Assembly: GCA_963662285.2 (NCBI GenBank)
Contig: CAXXMV010000001.1
Coordinates: forward strand, 1,120,001-1,184,000
Reading direction: 5' to 3'
DNA from: a bacterium
GTDB lineage: Bacteria > Hinthialibacterota > Hinthialibacteria > Hinthialibacterales > Hinthialibacteraceae
Length of the DNA stretch: 64,000 nt
Made by a program: the position numbers and the translations under genes. The notes below the pieces were generated by a model. The model had not been told where the DNA came from and made no database searches. It worked only from the letters and a program-made list of their open reading frames with translations. Shown piece after piece: positions 30,218 through 38,240 of this stretch (the stretch's first letter is position 1; each line of letters opens with the position of its first letter).

Positions 30218-33200
30218 ATGCTAAAATTCAATAATCCTGTTTTCTCAATTTCCTTCGTACTCAGTTTGATTATTTCATTGAATGCTGTTGCCGATTGGCC
30301 GACCTACCGCGCTGATATTGCGCGCAGTGGCAATGCTTCCGGCAAGTTGGATACAGCGCTTAATCTGCAATGGATATATTATCCTTCCCAGGCGCCCAAA
30401 CCGGCTTGGCCTGCTCCAGCCTCGGAACGACCGAGAATGCATGTGGATAATGCATATCATTCAGTGATTGCAAATGATACTGTTTATTTTGCCGTGAGCA
30501 TGACGGATAAGATATACGCTATCGACATCAACACGGGTGATGTTTGTTGGGATTTTTCTACTGATGGCCCGGTTCGTTTTGCTCCGGTATATTCTGATGG
30601 AAAACTCTACGCTGGATCGGATGATGGTTACGTTTATTGCCTGGATAGCGAAGACGGCTCTTTGATCTGGAAATACCGCGCAGGACCAAGCGACGAGAAA
30701 GTCATCGGTAATGGACGCATGATTTCTATGTGGCCAGTGCGCACGGGGTTACTGGTTGATGAAGGCGCAGTGTATTTCGCCGCAGGCGTTTTCCCCTATG
30801 AGGGATTATATATCTGCGCTTTGCAAGCCGCTGATGGCGAGGAATTATGGATAAATGATACTATCGGAGACCGGGCGCATGAGTTCGCTTATGGCGGCAT
30901 GTCGCCCTACGGTTATCCGGTCGCTTCCAACGATATTCTGTATATCCCCTCAGGCCGTTCAATGCCGACAGCTTTCAATCGTCATACGGGAGAATTTTTA
31001 TTCAATGCTTCTCCCGGAGGAAAACGGGGCGGCGCATGGGCTTTATTAGATAGCGACCGGCTTATTTCGGGAGTAGACTTTTCAGGCGTTCCTCACAAGG
31101 TCGAATACGATGCCGCAACAGGGCGGCGCAACGGCGACCTGTTCGCCTGGTTCCCTGGAATCGATTTAGTGGTATCCCAAGATGTATCCTATGTATTGAC
31201 GCTGGATGGCATCTATGCGATTGATCGCGCCAAATACGCCAAGTGTGCGGCGCAATCACAAGTCATAGAGCAAAAGCGAAAATTGGCTTCTACCCGATTA
31301 TCAAAACTTCGCGAAGAACTACGTAATTCAAATAGTCAAGATAACAACCAACTCTTAAATGAATTAGCCAAAGAATTATCCGCCTACGACAAAGAAGACT
31401 TGAGACTGAAAACGGATTGCTATCTGTGGAAACATTCCGGTAAGCATTATTCTTCATTGATCAAGTATGGATCCACCATTTTCGCTGGCGGCGACAATAA
31501 GATTGTTGCAATCAATGCGGCATCCGGCGAAGAGACATGGCGTTCAGATATCCAGGGACGCGTGACTGGATTATCCGCATCAGATTCAGGATTGATCGTC
31601 AGCAGCGACCAAGGGCCGGTTTACTGTTTCAGCAATACCAAGACGAAAGAAGTAAAAGAAACCAGGGAGTCTAATGTCGTCCGACCGCATGTTGCAAAAT
31701 CTTTAGAAGAAAAGTACCGCATCGCAGCCAAGGAATTGATCAATAGCAGTAGCTGGAAAAAAGGATACGCACTGGTTATTAACGGAGATGAAGGCCCGTT
31801 CGCCGATGAACTGGCGCGACAGTCTGATTTACAGATTATAGTTCTCGAAACAAATCCCGTAAAACGCGAAAAAGCGCGTCAATACCTTTTATCCACTGAG
31901 ATGTATGGAGTGCGGGTTGTTGTTGAATCGTGGGATATCCAGTCGCTGCCGGATTACTTCGCCAATCTGATTGTGGCCGATGGGCTATGCGACCAAGGCG
32001 ATAACAAGACCACCGCTGAAGAACGCTTCAGGTTGTTACGGCCATACGGTGGAGAAGAATACCAACCCGTCAATCGTTCGGAAATCGTTTTTGCCAGGAA
32101 TGTCAGAGGAAAACTGCAAGGCGCGGGCAACTGGACTCAACAATATGGCGATCCGCAAAACTCAGCCTGTTCCTATGATGAATTGGTTAATGGGCCCTTA
32201 GGCATCTCGTGGTTCGGCGAACCGGGTCCGCAAGGCATGGTGGAACGTCATGCACGCGCTCAAAGCCCTGTGGCTATGGATGGCCGACTTTTTGTTGAAG
32301 GCGAAGAATTAATCATGGCAGTCGATGCCTATAATGGTACGCTTCTATGGCAGCGTGAAATCCCCGGAGCGGTTCGCGTTAAAATCAAAGCGGATTGCGG
32401 CAACTTATGCATCACGGAAGAAGGCTTATTCATAGCTGCGCTTGATAAATGCTATCGCTTGGATCCAGAGACCGGAGATACGGTGCAGGTTTATGATCTG
32501 CCCATTGGTGATCCCGGCGTCTCTCGGCGCTGGGGATACTTGTCGGTGGTTGATGGCGTCCTCTATGGTTCCTCCGCCACGCCTATGACCAATGAATACG
32601 CTCATCTGTTGAAAACTTTTTTGACCAATGGTCAATGGCGACCTATTGATGAAGTGCCCAATGAATTTCATGAACAATACCAAACAGCGAGAGCCAGTTA
32701 TCCTCTTCCCCTCGATTTAATTCGGGCTGCTCAACGATCAGGTATTACTTATCGATACATGACGTCATTCGCCAGCAGCGGTGAATTCACTCAAAAGAAT
32801 TCCGTGTCTGATAGTTTGATGGTAAGCGACAAAGTTTTCGGGATGGATATCAATACTGGTGACTTATTGTGGGAGCATTCTAAAGGTCGTATCGCCAATA
32901 TTACCATAGTCATGGGTGACGGGAAAATATTCTTTGCCGATAGCGACGTGGATTCACAACAAAGAGCAAAAGCGCTTGACCAAAGGAAACGATATATCCG
33001 CGAAGGCGTTTATCGTGAACGGCAAGGCATTTTAGATGAATTGCGGGAGAAACAAGAAAAACTGGAAGCATACACCAACCGAACTCCACCAGCTACTAAT
33101 AATGTGTTGGCCTACCTGGTCGATTCACTGAAAGCCGAGTTATTCCAAGAAGAACATCCTGAAGGCGCTTTGACCTACGATGACGCTGATGTTCGCCTGG

Positions 33201-34414
33201 TCACCGCTCTCGATATGAAAACCGGAGCGAAAGTATGGGAGCAAATGGTTGATCTTACCGGCTGCGGAGGCGATAAAATGGGCGCCTCGTATCGTGATGG
33301 GCGGCTGCTATTCTTCGGCAACCATGGCAACCACGACGCCTGGCGTTTTCGTGAAGGCGGCATGAAATGGCGACGCATCACAGTGCTTTCGGGCGACGCG
33401 GGAGATATGGCGTGGTCTCATCCGCTCAATTACCGCACCCGCCCCGTTATTGTCGGCAACAAAGTTATATTGGAACCCCGCGCCTGCGACTTGCGCACGG
33501 GTGAAGAGATCACCCGCATTCATCCCGTTACTGGCGAGAATGTTCCGTGGGAATTTTTACGCCCCGGGCATACTTGCGGCATATCCGCCGCATCTGCGCA
33601 AGGATTATTTTACCGCTCGGCCTGTACGGCTTTTTATGATCTTGAAAAAGACCGGGGCATTACTACATTTGGAGCCTACCGTCCGGGATGCGCCATCAGC
33701 GTAATTCCTGCATGCGGCATGTTGTTATCTCCCGAAGCGGCGGCGGGGTGCACATGTTCGTATCCCATCCGTTGTTCCGTCGCGCTGGTGCGAAAACCCG
33801 AACGTACTCAACCTTGGACAATTTTTGTAACGCCGGGATCATTAAAGCCAGTCAAAAGGTTGGCGATCAACCTGGGCGCCGTAGCTGATATGAAGGATGA
33901 TGACGGGACGGTTTGGTTTGGATACCCCAGTCCGAATACCGAGGCGCATAATCATTTCCCCAATTATGGCGTGAAATTCAACTTCAAAGAGGATGGCGTT
34001 TCGGGGATGAAATATTTCAACCGGGATCACAAAAATATCAACATTCCAGGAACCGATAAACCCTGGTTATTCACTTCAGGCTGTGTAGGATTAACCCGGT
34101 GCCGAATTCCATTACTGGATGTTGAAGACAAGGATTCTTCGGGATGCTATACCGTTCGCCTGGGATTCATGCCTCTGAAAAATGATCAAGCGGGTCAACG
34201 GGTATTCAGCGTTAAACTGCAAGATGATGTGGTATTGGAAGATATTGATATCCGTCAGTCATCCGGTTCGCTGAGTCAACCAATAGTTAAAGAATTCAAA
34301 AACATCAGCGTTAAAGATGACCTGGTACTGGAACTAATCCAGAAGAATTCTTCGTCAACTAAAAACGAAGCTACCCTCATAAACTTCATAGAAATTATTC
34401 AGGAAGAGGTGTAG
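30218..34414 (+). CDS. Large secreted PQQ-like beta-propeller protein with a methyltransferase-like insert and a malectin-like C-terminus
   Basis: DWPTYRAD..RS start, repeated G..W blades, second WTQQYGD propeller, C-terminal RVFSVKLQ..VLEDIDI. Confidence 0.8.
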   Translation: MLKFNNPVFSISFVLSLIISLNAVADWPTYRADIARSGNASGKLDTALNLQWIYYPSQAPKPAWPAPASERPRMHVDNAYHSVIANDTVYFAVSMTDKIYAIDINTGDVCWDFSTDGPVRFAPVYSDGKLYAGSDDGYVYCLDSEDGSLIWKYRAGPSDEKVIGNGRMISMWPVRTGLLVDEGAVYFAAGVFPYEGLYICALQAADGEELWINDTIGDRAHEFAYGGMSPYGYPVASNDILYIPSGRSMPTAFNRHTGEFLFNASPGGKRGGAWALLDSDRLISGVDFSGVPHKVEYDAATGRRNGDLFAWFPGIDLVVSQDVSYVLTLDGIYAIDRAKYAKCAAQSQVIEQKRKLASTRLSKLREELRNSNSQDNNQLLNELAKELSAYDKEDLRLKTDCYLWKHSGKHYSSLIKYGSTIFAGGDNKIVAINAASGEETWRSDIQGRVTGLSASDSGLIVSSDQGPVYCFSNTKTKEVKETRESNVVRPHVAKSLEEKYRIAAKELINSSSWKKGYALVINGDEGPFADELARQSDLQIIVLETNPVKREKARQYLLSTEMYGVRVVVESWDIQSLPDYFANLIVADGLCDQGDNKTTAEERFRLLRPYGGEEYQPVNRSEIVFARNVRGKLQGAGNWTQQYGDPQNSACSYDELVNGPLGISWFGEPGPQGMVERHARAQSPVAMDGRLFVEGEELIMAVDAYNGTLLWQREIPGAVRVKIKADCGNLCITEEGLFIAALDKCYRLDPETGDTVQVYDLPIGDPGVSRRWGYLSVVDGVLYGSSATPMTNEYAHLLKTFLTNGQWRPIDEVPNEFHEQYQTARASYPLPLDLIRAAQRSGITYRYMTSFASSGEFTQKNSVSDSLMVSDKVFGMDINTGDLLWEHSKGRIANITIVMGDGKIFFADSDVDSQQRAKALDQRKRYIREGVYRERQGILDELREKQEKLEAYTNRTPPATNNVLAYLVDSLKAELFQEEHPEGALTYDDADVRLVTALDMKTGAKVWEQMVDLTGCGGDKMGASYRDGRLLFFGNHGNHDAWRFREGGMKWRRITVLSGDAGDMAWSHPLNYRTRPVIVGNKVILEPRACDLRTGEEITRIHPVTGENVPWEFLRPGHTCGISAASAQGLFYRSACTAFYDLEKDRGITTFGAYRPGCAISVIPACGMLLSPEAAAGCTCSYPIRCSVALVRKPERTQPWTIFVTPGSLKPVKRLAINLGAVADMKDDDGTVWFGYPSPNTEAHNHFPNYGVKFNFKEDGVSGMKYFNRDHKNINIPGTDKPWLFTSGCVGLTRCRIPLLDVEDKDSSGCYTVRLGFMPLKNDQAGQRVFSVKLQDDVVLEDIDIRQSSGSLSQPIVKEFKNISVKDDLVLELIQKNSSSTKNEATLINFIEIIQEEV

Positions 34415-34467
34415 AGAATTTATTAAACCTTAAAACGGCAGTTCGTTTTTGCAGAGGTGGTTTATAT

Positions 34468-34503
34468 CAACCCTCTCCTTACCTCTCCCAGTCTTGGGAG
34501 AGG
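34468..34503. repeat. REP-like palindromic unit
   Basis: CAACCCTCTCCTTA-CCTCTCCCA-GTCT-TGGGAGAGG; similar to 38440-38476. Confidence 0.7.
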
Positions 34504-34571
34504 AATGTTAGACCACCGTATTTGTATAACTAAAACACAATGATATAACTGGTAATATTTCCGAAACCCCT

Positions 34572-34598
34572 CTCCCCCAAGTTGGGGGAGAATTCAAG
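34572..34598. repeat. Left part of the REP-like unit interrupted by the IS (continues at 36421-36429)
   Basis: CTCCCCCAAGTTGGGGGAG-AATTCAAG | IS | AGGGGGTTG reconstructs a unit like 38391-38426. Confidence 0.7.
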
Positions 34599-34692
34599 TG
34601 TATGAACCGGGCACATCCTTTACAGAATAAACCGGGCACATGGTTTACACAAGTCGATACTAAGAACCGACCAGAAGAAAGGAGTCGGTTCG

Positions 34693-35904
34693 ATGACTTG
34701 GAAGGAAAACAGTGCCATGGATGCAAGAATGAAATTTATTGCGGATGTCCTCCGCAAAGAAGACACACTAAGCGCCTTATGCCAAGCATATGGCATTAGT
34801 AGACCAACCGGATATAAATGGATCAAGCGCTATCAGGAAGACGGTCCTGGTGGATTGGAGGAGCGATCCCGGGCGCCCCATACCCAAGCACTAGCCGTTT
34901 CTAAAGAGACCGAAAAAGAAGTGAAGGCTATGCGAAAAAAGTTTCCGCACTACGGTCCTAAAAAATTACGGGTGGAACTGAAAAAAAAGGATGCGACGAA
35001 GCACTGGCCGGCAATCAGTACGATTGGCGAGATACTAAAACGCAAAAATCTGATTGTCAGCCGCAAGCAAAAAGATCGCGCCAAACCAAGTGGTGAAGCG
35101 TTAACCGAATTCGACCAAGTGAACCGCGTATGGTGCGCGGATTTCAAAGGAGATTTTCTAACGGGAGACGAACATCGATGTTTCCCTTTAACCGTATCGG
35201 AAGGGGCTAGCCGCTATTTACTCTGCTGCCAAGGCATGCAAGAAACCAATGGCGCATTGGTACGCGTAATTTTCGAGCAGATTTTTCGCGAGTATGGTTT
35301 ACCAGAAGTCATTCGAACGGATAACGGGGCGCCCTTTGCGTCGACCGGAATCGGAGGGTTAACCAAATTATCCGTGTGGTGGATAAAACTGAGAATTTAT
35401 CCAGAACGAATCCAGCCGGGTCGGCCTCAACAAAATGGCCGTCATGAGCGAATTCACCGGACCTTGAAAGCAGAGGCCATTTCTCCACCAGCGCCAACGC
35501 TGCGTGAACAACAAAAACGTTTTGATCAATTTCAAAAAGTGTACAACGAAGAGCGGCCTCATGAGAGTTTGGGACAACGACCTCCCGCGCAGTTGTATCA
35601 ACCCTCGCCGCGCGTCTATTCAGGTAAAGCGCCGAATTGGGAGTATCCAGAGACCATGCAGGTGCGCCAAGTGAAAACCCATGGTGAAATCAGTTGGCGA
35701 AGCAAGCATTGGTATTTGGGGGAAGCTTTGGGAGGTGAATTGGTGGGACTAGAGGAATTGGAATAGAATAATTGGCGCATTAGTTTGGGTAACGTGATTC
35801 TCGGTTGGTTGAATATGTCAAAAGGTGAGGTGGTGCGTGAATTGTCTTTGAGACGCATCAATCATCCAAAAGCAATCAGTCACCCGGCAGTATGTCCCAG
35901 GTAA
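34693..35904 (+). pseudogene. IS481-family DDE transposase interrupted by an in-frame TAG at 35764-35766
   Basis: HTH (GISRPTGYKW), DDE motifs WCADFKG / RTDNG / NGRHER; the frame continues 45 codons (NNWRISLGNVILGWLN...) to TAA at 35904. Confidence 0.8.
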
Positions 35905-36002
35905 AAAATGAGCTAGGGAAGTATCAAGATGATGAATAATTCAGGTATTAATTTTCCTGAGATTGAATCCAGATCGTCTCTTTTTCGAGAAAATCAAAGA
36001 GC

Positions 36003-36214
36003 GCACGGGTGAAAAAAAAGGTGGCAATATCGGGGGCGCCGCCCCCGTACCCCCGGAGTTTTTTTAGGCATTAGCACAAACTCCAGATAGTATGCAAAAA
36101 AAAGCAAAGGGACGGTTCTAAATCCGTCCCTTTAGCGACTATCCGTCGCCCGTGCACCAGGATATCCCTTGACAGGTTGCTCTCCAGCAGAGCCTGTCTC
36201 CGTTTCTCCTGGTG
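36003..36214. ncRNA. Putative structured non-coding RNA (or ssDNA structure) inside the IS
   Basis: Six mostly compatible stems in ~210 nt; two G-U pairs favour the + strand. Confidence 0.5.
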
Positions 36215-36452
36215 ATAATAACTATCGGATAGCTCGAAATAATCTGTAGAAAAAGAAGTAAAAAAACAGTTCTAGCAAGTAAGCAATTCAGAATACGTTG
36301 ATATACCTGAAAACGGATTATCTCTTTAAAAAAACAGATAAGTTGCCATAATTTTCGAGACAAAAGTGTAAACCATGTGCCCGGTCTAAAGTGTAAACTA
36401 TGTGCCCGGTCATTCACAAGAGGGGGTTGTTTTCAAACACCGTGGATTAATT

Positions 36453-38240
36453 CTAATACAACGACCAATCAGTCACTGCGGTTTGATCAGAGATATCGAT
36501 TCTGCTCCAATCCGGATTGCCGTTTTGTATAGAGTTGGTTAAGGGCCATTGAATAGCCGGATTTTGGTTTGAAACCACCCATAAATTACTGGTCGAGTAT
36601 GTTTTGCTATAGCGCGTATATACGGTATAGTTACCATTAGGCCAGGATACTGACATGGGACCGAAATACTCATTGAAGAGCGTGAATATATCTGACGAAC
36701 TGGAATTATCAAAATCATAGCGTTTCATCTTAACCGCTTGTTGATCTAATTCTGTATAGATCAATCCCGAAGCGTCGGGCAGCCAGGTGGGATTCGATGC
36801 GTTCATGGAATAAAAAACTTCTTCGCCCACAGTGGTTGAATTGTCTTTTATGCGGTAAATCCCTTTAAGAAATTTCTCGTATAAAATCCAATCATCCACA
36901 GGAGACCAGGCTTGAGCGTTCATGGATATATGCTCGCCAAGTTGAGAAAATACATCCTGGCTAATGGTGTATTCCACCGGATCGGGAGTGATTTTTCTGA
37001 AGAGTCCGTCCATAGAAAAACCAATCACTGAGCCATCGCTTGACCAGGTTAAATTACGAGGCTCAAAATGGGAGCTGTTGCGATAGTAGATAACTTGAAC
37101 ATCAGCCACAGTTTCACCAGCGACAACGTCTAGAACCGTCGCTGCGATTTCGCGGTAAGAATCAGAGAGCACGGCGATGGATTGAAAAACGCCAATCCCG
37201 AAGTCCATGACATTTTCAACGCGGAATGTAGTGTAATCATTCGGCGCCAGTTGAATGCTGACCGGCTCAGGCGCCCCGTGAATAATGAGCATAGCCGCAT
37301 AATACTCATTATTCGAGTTATAAACCGTCCCTTCCACTGTGCCGGTAGGCGTATCTGCGGGTAGATTGTTGATTGAAGGGAAATTGGTAATGCGGCGCAG
37401 TCCGCTTCCATCTGGACGAATGGCGAAGATATCTGAAGAGTAAATCGATTGATGGAATTCATGATTGCTGGTGAAAGCGATTTCCGAGGCGTCGGGCCTC
37501 CAGGCGACGTCGAACATTTTGGAGAACTCGCTTTCGATTCGCCATACGCTCCGGTCATTGCTGCCATCAGGCTCTACCAGGCGGATTTCATTGAAATCAT
37601 TATCGCCATGCAGGTAAGTAATCGTTCCAAGCGTATCCGGCGTCATTATTTCTCCCGATATCCTGCATGAAACATTGTCAATATGCATGGCCAAGTCGGA
37701 CGCGACGGCATAAATAATGAAATATAACCTCCCCCCGTTTTGAACATGCTGACTGAGTGTTGCAATATCGGCTGGAGTTAATGAATAGTTGATCGCGTCC
37801 CAGGAGGCGGAAACCCGGTTTGCGTCGTTGTTGAAATGCACCTGAACCAAAGGCGAATCCAAAGGCGCCGCTTGAGCGAATATGCCTGCGCCTGATTGAG
37901 AGAAGCCGGGATTATAACCAACCGACATAAAACGATAATCAAAAGCCACATCAATTTGCTTTATAACCGATGGCGTAAATAGTGGTTGGGCTGTATAAGC
38001 CCAATAATTTTCGCTTTGGGTGGGCGCCAATGACATGCCCCAGCCTGCGCCCTGATAATTGGCTTCCTGAGTGATATACGATAATGAGCCGGAGATTCCC
38101 CAACCCGTGTCATCTGCGTCAAACGATCCGTTAATTATGTATTCGGCGTGGTCAATCGTATTAGCTGAGCATTCGGATATCTCAGTGAAGCATAGGATGA
38201 GCAAGAGAAAAGATAAGCCGGAAATAACAAACGATCTCAT
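36453..38240 (-). CDS. Secreted protein with TolB/PD40-like repeats and a C-terminal QTAVTDWSLY motif
   Basis: Signal peptide; AWRPDASEIAF, TWSSDG, AWSP, PTWLPD and NPDWS repeats. Confidence 0.8.
   Translation of the reverse strand: MRSFVISGLSFLLLILCFTEISECSANTIDHAEYIINGSFDADDTGWGISGSLSYITQEANYQGAGWGMSLAPTQSENYWAYTAQPLFTPSVIKQIDVAFDYRFMSVGYNPGFSQSGAGIFAQAAPLDSPLVQVHFNNDANRVSASWDAINYSLTPADIATLSQHVQNGGRLYFIIYAVASDLAMHIDNVSCRISGEIMTPDTLGTITYLHGDNDFNEIRLVEPDGSNDRSVWRIESEFSKMFDVAWRPDASEIAFTSNHEFHQSIYSSDIFAIRPDGSGLRRITNFPSINNLPADTPTGTVEGTVYNSNNEYYAAMLIIHGAPEPVSIQLAPNDYTTFRVENVMDFGIGVFQSIAVLSDSYREIAATVLDVVAGETVADVQVIYYRNSSHFEPRNLTWSSDGSVIGFSMDGLFRKITPDPVEYTISQDVFSQLGEHISMNAQAWSPVDDWILYEKFLKGIYRIKDNSTTVGEEVFYSMNASNPTWLPDASGLIYTELDQQAVKMKRYDFDNSSSSDIFTLFNEYFGPMSVSWPNGNYTVYTRYSKTYSTSNLWVVSNQNPAIQWPLTNSIQNGNPDWSRIDISDQTAVTDWSLY

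Follow-up and report, generated by a model that had tools for sequence, protein, structure and literature searches.

In the usual textbook picture, insertion sequences (ISs) consist of two ends that flank a transposase gene, and to our knowledge the RNAs described for them are either antisense regulators private to one element or guides that work with a single enzyme family. RNA-OUT of IS10 is a cis-antisense regulator of its transposase, and omega RNAs are encoded with the TnpB and IscB proteins of IS200/605 elements. Small RNAs (sRNAs) of the CsrB/RsmZ kind, which are chromosomal and under two-component control, expose GGA motifs in loops. The subject of this report is a conserved, structured, IS-borne non-coding element at positions 36055-36250 of a 64,000-nucleotide stretch of a genome of the Hinthialibacteraceae (hereafter the window; contig CAXXMV010000001.1), where it lies within an element of the IS481 family. 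This module is very probably an RNA gene, and we consider it probable that the gene is autonomous, read from the minus strand and common to many IS families.

The nearest analogue of the module is Ssr9 (MITEPpu9) of ISPpu9, an IS110-family element of Pseudomonas putida, in which an sRNA gene with its own promoter lies downstream of the transposase gene (PMC12288879). Ssr9 is reported from three closely related strains and a single IS, is flanked by copies of the IS end boxes and pairs with a second IS RNA, Asr9; copies without a transposase gene exist, and the RNA is dispensable for the transposition chemistry and was proposed to be a selfish passenger (PMC12288879). The module resembles Ssr9, as presented there, in being a predicted sRNA gene with its own promoter, located in an IS downstream of the transposase gene, and in having some copies that lack such a gene. 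It differs from that account in occurring in at least seven IS families and several phyla, in showing no end boxes by eye and in having a deeply conserved fold.

A second comparison is offered by art200 of IS200, a cis-antisense regulator of the transposase gene (PMC4513863). Like RNA-OUT and art200, the module would give a short, stable, structured RNA from a promoter inside the IS, opposed to the transposase mRNA (the arrangement is convergent in 43 of 56 loci). RNA-OUT and art200 concern the 5' end and start codon of the message in one IS each, whereas the module faces the 3' end and stop codon in multiple families, keeps invariant loops and, in its tandem copies, is antisense to nothing. 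The bridge RNA of IS110 is a structured, IS-encoded guide RNA (PMC11208158). Bridge and omega RNAs resemble the module in being structured RNAs, about 150-200 nt long, that an IS encodes close to one of its ends, and in having hairpins that carry internal loops. The loop or flank bases of guide RNAs vary with target or donor and the RNAs serve one protein family, unlike the module, whose loops are invariant and whose partner proteins are unrelated. The carriers also argue against an IS110 bridge RNA or IS1111 seekRNA, IS110-like transposases being found in only 6 of 56 loci, at locus L037 and on an Acidisarcina plasmid, while most carriers are IS3-, IS21- and IS481-like. Finally, protein-sequestering sRNAs of the CsrB/RsmZ kind (PMC11882849) are similar in exposing several GGA motifs at short, even intervals in hairpin loops and internal loops, and the hosts of the module encode CsrA. 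The module differs from them in having only three invariant GGA motifs, in being IS-borne and in matching no Csr/Rsm family of Rfam, and binding is hypothetical. By these comparisons the module falls among the IS-encoded small RNAs, with unusually broad hosts.

The module matched no Rfam 15 family, a point that the initial annotation of this DNA had left to be checked. A search of window positions 34400-36600 at E<=10 returned three matches at 13-15 bits against thresholds of 43-70, and eight metagenome loci searched at E<=1 gave nothing over the module. A search of the main texts of the open-access literature by keywords and with the core sequence as text found no description of the module RNA.

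Structure and covariation of the module

The features of the module and of the element that carries it are as follows, in window coordinates.

34599..36416, plus strand: IS481-family element (IS481A), 1818 bp, defined from five genomic copies, inverted repeats and flank comparison
34693..35904, plus strand: transposase gene, with the domains rve, rve_3, HTH_32 and LZ_Tnp_IS481
36221..36250, minus strand: putative sigma-70 promoter, with -35 box TCTACA (36250-36245), 18-nt spacer and -10 box GATAGT (36226-36221), from the profile and scan described below
36155..36214, minus strand: hairpin P4, the module core, from a 66-copy alignment in which 15 of 18 pairs are compensatory
36081..36154, minus strand: long irregular hairpin P2/P3, from covariation
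36055..36071, minus strand: conserved tail, in minus sense AUGCCUAAAAAAACUCC, from the 66-copy alignment
36012..36065, no strand assigned: block specific to this IS type, from the sequence, with A8 (36012-19), CGGGGGC/GCCCCCG (36031-47) and T7 (36059-65)

The initial annotation had placed a highly structured region at 36003-36214, and all of the stems that it listed can be read from the sequence at the positions given.

36003-10 / 36148-55: long-range stem GCACGGGT/GCCCGTGC
36031-37 / 36041-47: stem CGGGGGC/GCCCCCG
36055-61 / 36078-84: stem GGAGTTT/AAACTCC
36106-15 / 36124-33: stem AAAGGGACGG/CCGTCCCTTT (P3)
36135-39 / 36145-49: stem GCGAC/GTCGC, a local hairpin
36155-62 / 36207-14: stem CACCAGGA/TCCTGGTG (outer stem of P4), enclosing GACAGG/CCTGTC

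The region folds more stably than shuffled sequence on either strand. The minimum free energy of 35990-36230 was -94.5 kcal/mol on the plus strand, compared with -64.1±4.6 for shuffles (z -6.64), and -97.1 kcal/mol on the minus strand, compared with -72.8±5.0 (z -4.88), while minus-strand 36216-36008 gave -89.2 kcal/mol against -64.1±4.1 (z -6.14). In all three runs, none of 200 shuffles was as stable.

Comparison among copies moved the bounds, the conserved unit being 36055-36250 instead of 36003-36214. Positions 36003-36054, with the A8 run, GC hairpin and T7 run, are confined to this IS type. The long-range stem, thought to close the structure, is present in the window and identical in the five genomic copies of the element but has no counterpart in relatives. 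Similarly, the stem at 36055-61/36078-84 is present in the window but unconserved in a set of 78 metagenome copies (64.7% of cells paired); it was ruled out as a conserved helix, two of its four pairs being mostly unpaired in the wider set. GC hairpins similar to that of the window precede GAGTTTTTT in loci L040, L045, L031, L042 and L076. The 36012-36065 block is, from its sequence, a candidate bidirectional terminator for the transposase gene on the plus strand and the RNA gene on the minus strand.

Covariation was examined in two sets of copies. The first consisted of 15 aligned copies with the structure set by hand, and the controls were sliding of the partners and 500 shuffles. In this set 86-88% of cells were paired, compared with 31-44% with the partners slid, and none of the 500 shuffles matched the observed covariation. 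The second set was the 78 distinct metagenome copies, with the alignment fitted to the plus-strand model; 85.8% of cells were paired, against 28-48% when slid, and compensatory cells numbered 564, against 183±12 in shuffles. Changes on both sides were present at every pair of P2 (7/7), P3 (8/8) and the outer stem of P4 (7/7). Covariation among related copies, proposed earlier as a check on this region, is thus strong in our own shuffle test of the 78 copies. Locus L038 (G010:C277) was omitted from the alignments because of an N stretch across the middle of the module.

One helix had been overlooked. P2 is formed by GATAGT (36086-91) and ACTATC (36138-43) and encloses P3, and all seven of its modelled pairs covary, in the 15-copy set as well. 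The local hairpin GCGAC/GTCGC covaries too and is in competition with P2.

P4 is built of an outer stem (36155-62/36207-14), an inner stem (36171-76/36193-98) and an apical stem (36178-81/36186-89). The 4-bp apical stem covaries (UA in 54, GC in 8, AU in 2 and CG in 2 of the 66 copies) and carries an invariant GGAG tetraloop on the minus strand (36185-82). The internal loop, 9 nt on each side, is conserved and reads GAAACGGAG (36206-36198) and CAAGGGAUA (36171-36163) on the minus strand. GGA motifs are present in the 5' side of the internal loop in 62, in the apical tetraloop in 64 and in the 3' side of the internal loop in 62 of the 66 copies, with a spacing of 16 and 18 nt. GGA exceeds TCC on the minus strand in 63/66 copies (means 5.4 and 2.5). 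In short copies (L028-L030, L129, L131) the model match covers only P4 or begins at P4, and P4 is therefore regarded as the core of the module. At the other end, the tail is conserved at 90% or more as AUGCCU-N-A-rich-CUC (AUGCCU-N-AAAAAA-CUC) in 66 copies, and is probably single-stranded (36071-36055).

Earlier, CTTGA (36168-72) and TTCTCC (36204-09) at the internal loop of P4 had been noted, speculatively, as complementary to the target flank, the RNA had been suggested as a possible cofactor or regulator of the transposase, and covariation of the loops with insertion targets had been proposed as a check. The loops are near-invariant in 66 diverse copies that accompany unrelated transposases, and they remain so although three IS481A copies differ in the duplicated target (CAAG, GGTG and GTCC). 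Neither target guiding by these bases nor a role as transposase cofactor is consistent with this pattern.

A protein-coding reading was also rejected: single-base insertions and deletions separate copies after AGGCAT, and many copies have TAA directly behind ATGCCT on the minus strand. Open reading frames (ORFs) overlapping the module gave no Pfam match in the scan of metagenome neighbour ORFs. In the window copy, P3 and the T run behind it are scored as a minus-strand terminator; as a general terminator P3 was rejected, because 6 or more U within the next 12 nt (minus strand) were present in only 13 of 71 copies.

Distribution across genomes and metagenomes

The module, described in the initial annotation as lying inside an IS481 element, is not confined to it and is present in unrelated IS families of at least two phyla. 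In a DNA search, window positions 36056-36232, the 3' two-thirds of the module, were found in 14 of 61 related genomes including the window's own, often in multiple copies. A covariance model, R1, was built from 15 copies and gave the following numbers of genomes with matches.

Family genomes: 14 of 20
Phylum genomes: 18 of 35
Second phylum: 7 of 13
Sample of further bacterial genomes: 3 of 116

One match (55 bits) was on plasmid pACPOL3 of Acidisarcina polymorpha, beside an annotated IS110-family transposase. The plasmid database PLSDB, queried with the window's own version of the module, gave no match.

The window's genome holds 25 R1 places, comprising 5 in IS481A, 18 in IS481B, 1 in an IS21 element and 1 remnant that looks like the right end of an IS3 element. 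IS481B is a second IS481-like element of about 1.5 kb, present in 18 copies in this genome, with a transposase 36% identical to that of IS481A.

The exact 20-base pattern of the P4 core was found in at least 119 metagenome stretches. Among the metagenome loci fetched, 79 of 80 matched R1, 67 of them over the whole model length, and GC content among the full-length matches ranged from 0.32 to 0.65. A similar pattern scan of a collection of species genomes gave five loci in unrelated taxa, which were dismissed as chance; the model found 22-nt local matches in two of these and none in three.

Different IS families resemble each other only as far as the -35 box at one border of the module and the A-rich tail at the other. 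An RNA gene of about 200 nt would have been exchanged among at least seven IS families; the genome set shows it in two or more phyla, and it is also found on an Acidobacteriota plasmid and in metagenome DNA. This wide spread implies a benefit that is independent of the transposase. If confirmed, the module would represent a new and abundant RNA family and a directly testable handle on the interaction between ISs and host regulation. It would also improve IS annotation, since the 3' gaps of these elements would not be junk.

Insertion sequence context

The ORFs neighbouring the metagenome copies were compared with Pfam (150 of 154 scanned), and a transposition gene was counted when it lay within 700 nt of the module. 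Such a gene was present in 56 of 79 loci, and the nearest one was distributed as follows.

IS3-like: 39 of 56 loci
IS21: 6 of 56 loci
IS110: 6 of 56 loci
IS481: 2 of 56 loci
IS256 (Transposase_mut): 1 of 56 loci
IS630 (DDE_3): 1 of 56 loci
Resolvase: 1 of 56 loci

In two metagenome loci the second neighbour is an ISL3 transposase. Among related genomes, the module stands beside the IstB/IstA genes of IS21 elements at L007 (in the window's own genome), L020, L036, L040 and L045, beside IS3-like transposases with rve and HTH_21 domains at L046 and its copies and at L021, and beside an IS110-family transposase at L037. The carriers therefore encode both DDE enzymes (IS3, IS21, IS481, IS256 and ISL3 types) and DEDD enzymes (IS110 type).

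The location of the module is similar throughout: it occupies the gap behind the last transposition gene, on its 3' side and before the IS end, about 100-150 nt inside the terminal repeat. A single exception is an IS21-like locus (L170:1067-1254), with istA on one side of the module and istB on the other. Of the 56 loci, 43 have a convergent layout, as does the window, the plus sense of the window continuing the strand of the transposase gene and the minus-strand RNA gene opposing it. The layout is tandem, with the plus sense inverted relative to the transposase gene, in 12 loci and in IS481B, which has 18 copies. For 25 of the 56 loci (23 IS3 and 2 IS21) the transposase stop codon is a TGA inside the conserved TGAGTTTT at the edge of the module.

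Low-scoring copies beside ordinary genes appeared solitary. These have an IS3-like terminal repeat on one side and, on the other, C-terminal rve_3 fragments on the opposite strand (L058, L076, L031 and L077), in the place where full IS3 transposases are found at L141, L142, L192 and L175. A host chromosomal gene was thus ruled out for the solo copies, which are right-end remnants of IS3 elements that retain the module.

Two loci have an ORF with an RVT_1 reverse-transcriptase domain at a distance of a few hundred bases from the module (L034:2273-3109 and L067:2199-3182). These are probably group II introns, which might be drawn to the hairpins of the module.

Probable strand and predicted promoter

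The functional strand is likely the minus strand, opposite to that folded in the initial annotation, as judged from the wobble pairs and from a positioned promoter. Across all stems of the 78 metagenome copies, A.C or C.A on the plus strand, equivalent to G.U on the minus strand, was counted 153 times, compared with 99 for G.T on the plus strand. The asymmetry was pronounced in P3 (46 to 7) and in the outer stem of P4 (67 to 9). Fitting of the alignment to the plus strand should bias these counts toward the plus strand, opposite to the result. The excess of GGA over TCC on the minus strand in 63 of 66 copies also favours that strand.

To describe the sequence upstream of P4, 66 diverse copies were aligned in the minus sense, with positions given relative to the first base of P4. 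Of the 66 copies, 37 have T at -35 and 41 have T at -34, with CTTGAC there in many; A is found at -11 in 40, at -10 in 36, at -9 in 41 and at -8 in 30, and 47 copies have T at -7. This profile is that of a -35 box separated by a 17-nt spacer from a -10 box, and it places the predicted start at the base of P4. In a scan for a -35 box, a 16-18 nt spacer and a -10 box, the -10 box began at -12 or -11 in 25 of 65 copies, while at any other of about 120 offsets no more than two copies did so. In the window, transcription is predicted to start near 36214-36216. The wobble asymmetry and the positioned promoter together carry the reading as a minus-strand RNA.

A search of sequencing runs recovered the module sequence in no RNA run and only in two runs of DNA contigs from one study, a result that has no bearing on expression. 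A second conserved block, GTTGCCGTTCGCTGAAAAA, was seen 40-58 nt upstream of P4 in the minus sense, just upstream of the -35 box and inside the right end of IS3 elements, in soil IS3 loci including L144, L136, L162, L140, L124 and L177. It could be an inner binding site of the transposase or OrfA that also controls the RNA promoter.

Proposed function

The proposed gene would be an sRNA gene of about 240 bp within the IS, read from the minus strand of the window. A sigma-70-type promoter (-35 box at 36250-45, -10 box at 36226-21) would start the RNA at the base of P4, near 36214. The RNA would pass through P4 (36214-36155) and the long irregular hairpin P2/P3 (36154-36081) and continue into the probably single-stranded tail AUGCCU-N-AAAAAA-CUC (36071-36055); in this IS it would probably terminate at the GC hairpin and U8 near 36011. 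The gene would be a portable accessory module of many IS families, housed in the non-coding gap before the IS end.

The RNA may act as a regulator. In the convergent layout its tail and body would lie antisense to the transposase message at its 3' end, stop codon included, and this overlap suggests damping of transposase output. CsrA-type proteins recognise GGA in loops. The invariant P4 loops, with their three GGA motifs, may bind a conserved host RNA-binding protein, for which the CsrA/RsmA type is a candidate. Antisense control of the transposase 3' end, host-protein binding, or both, are the leading ideas on function.

Several observations weigh against this interpretation. Promoter, start and strand are all predictions from sequence, and only 25 of 65 copies contain the promoter match as defined. 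The wobble counts of the phylum set are balanced (72 G.T and 75 A.C), and a single pair, at columns 270-298, contributes 25 G.T on the plus strand. No general terminator is apparent, a U-tract following P3 on the minus strand in only 13 of 71 copies. At 23 of the 79 metagenome loci there is no transposition gene within 700 nt, many of the contigs being short and 150 of the 154 ORFs having been scanned. Antisense control leaves the 12 tandem loci and the 18-copy IS481B unexplained and has no need of conserved loops. For CsrA the support consists of motif counts alone; CsrA genes are found in 35 of 35 phylum genomes, with or without the module, so that their presence is uninformative.

A wider version of the proposal holds that the module is an ancient accessory RNA shared by most IS families with circular or junction intermediates, which captures a host factor and so couples transposition to host physiology. 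We regard this version as doubtful. The captured factor would be, for example, a CsrA-type regulator on the GGA loops of P4 or a replication component for the excised copy. If true, it would define a new class of transposon-host interface RNA that is independent of transposase family.

Of the idea put forward in the initial annotation, an IS-encoded non-coding RNA, the RNA itself has gained from the conserved, covarying structure and the lack of an Rfam match, while the cofactor or guide role has not been retained.

Alternative explanations

An unlikely alternative is that the plus strand is functional. The transposase mRNA would then have the module as its structured 3' untranslated region, beginning at the stop codon and acting as terminator, stabiliser or insulator, possibly with self-cleavage. 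In 43 of 56 loci the plus sense does continue the strand of the transposase gene behind it, with the stop codon within the first conserved bases in 25, and a GC hairpin directly before GAGTTTTTT in several copies, including that of the window, has the shape of an intrinsic terminator on the plus strand. The plus-strand fold is also stable (z -6.64), and U.G pairs occur in the stem 36055-61/36078-84 in 9 of 15 close relatives. That stem, however, is unconserved in the wider set, the wobble counts favour the minus strand in both P3 (46 to 7) and the outer stem of P4 (67 to 9), and the positioned promoter sits on the minus strand. Furthermore, 12 of the 56 loci and all 18 copies of IS481B carry the module inverted with respect to the transposase gene, and no Rfam ribozyme family was matched.

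ISs of the IS3, IS21, IS110, IS256, ISL3 and IS481 families are reported to use circular or junction intermediates, and the IS630 family transposes by cut-and-paste. As nearly all carriers belong to the former group, the hairpins might instead act as single-stranded DNA, as a priming or loading signal for replication in copy-out-paste-in transposition. The occurrence of both module orientations and the equal frequency of G.T and A.C mismatches in the phylum set are consistent with such a signal. It is nevertheless very unlikely: the strong wobble asymmetry of the large set accords with a single functional strand, a DNA signal would not account for the promoter-like boxes and their fixed distance, and an IS630-like neighbour is among the carriers.

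The presence of the module in at least seven IS families and in both orientations, together with its sharp borders, would also be expected of a non-autonomous mobile element resembling a miniature inverted-repeat transposable element (MITE), surviving in the dispensable 3' gap of ISs, with the RNA incidental or a selfish passenger. There is precedent in the MITE-like ssr9 unit (PMC12288879). We consider this explanation highly improbable. Inspection of the alignments by eye, with no systematic search, found no border repeats, IS-end-like boxes or target duplications. Copies outside ISs are IS3 remnants, and the conservation of loops and covarying stems across GC contents of 0.32-0.65 implies selection on the fold.

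Least credible is the earlier proposal of an RNA cofactor or guide of its own transposase, of bridge-RNA or omega-RNA type with loops reading the target. In its favour, the pair of hairpins with internal loops is reminiscent of a bridge RNA, IS110-like transposases occur at 6 of 56 loci and the RNA adjoins an IS end, but the reading is rejected because the loops are invariant while the transposases are unrelated and the targets differ, and, in addition, the module lies 100-150 nt inside the IS end and not at it, and no TnpB or IscB (tnpB/iscB) Pfam domain was found among the neighbour ORFs scanned.

The host insertion sequence in the window

The assignment of the host element to IS481 in the initial annotation agrees with the transposase domains. 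The inverted repeats pair 34606-50 with 36366-410. The element has the termini TGTATGAACC...GGTCATTCA and is bounded by a 4-bp target duplication, CAAG, at 34595-34598 and 36417-36420. The five IS481A copies of the window's genome are 99-100% identical, with no differences across the module, and the 4-bp duplications read for three of them are CAAG, GGTG and GTCC.

In the window the transposase ORF is truncated by TAG at 35764-35766, whereas three of the five genomic copies have GAG at this position and are open to 35904. The copy on contig C2 also has TAG at the position of window 35764. With TAG the last 46 codons of the transposase are lost, which probably makes these two of the five copies defective. 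A gap of about 460 bp separates 35904 from the right inverted repeat, and in it, as had been noted before, there is no convincing ORF; the sole ORF in the gap past the transposase is one of 92 aa on the minus strand that extends into the right repeat.

A short palindromic repeat (CCCTCTCCCCCAAG..TGGGGGAGA, with motifs of the GGGAGAGGG type) adjoins both IS481-like elements of the genome. It was seen at window positions 34560-34598 and 36417-36440 and in the flanks of L002, L003, L079 and L080, and looks like a preferred target resembling repetitive extragenic palindromic sequences. The two elements are also found nested, an IS481A copy lying within the terminal repeat of an IS481B copy at G000:C1:606285-609516 (loci L005 and L102). 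The gene content along the contig is suggestive of an environmental bacterium with a large genome, belonging to a small phylum (35 species genomes). In the window, an ORF of 1398 aa at 30218-34414 stops shortly upstream of the IS481A element.

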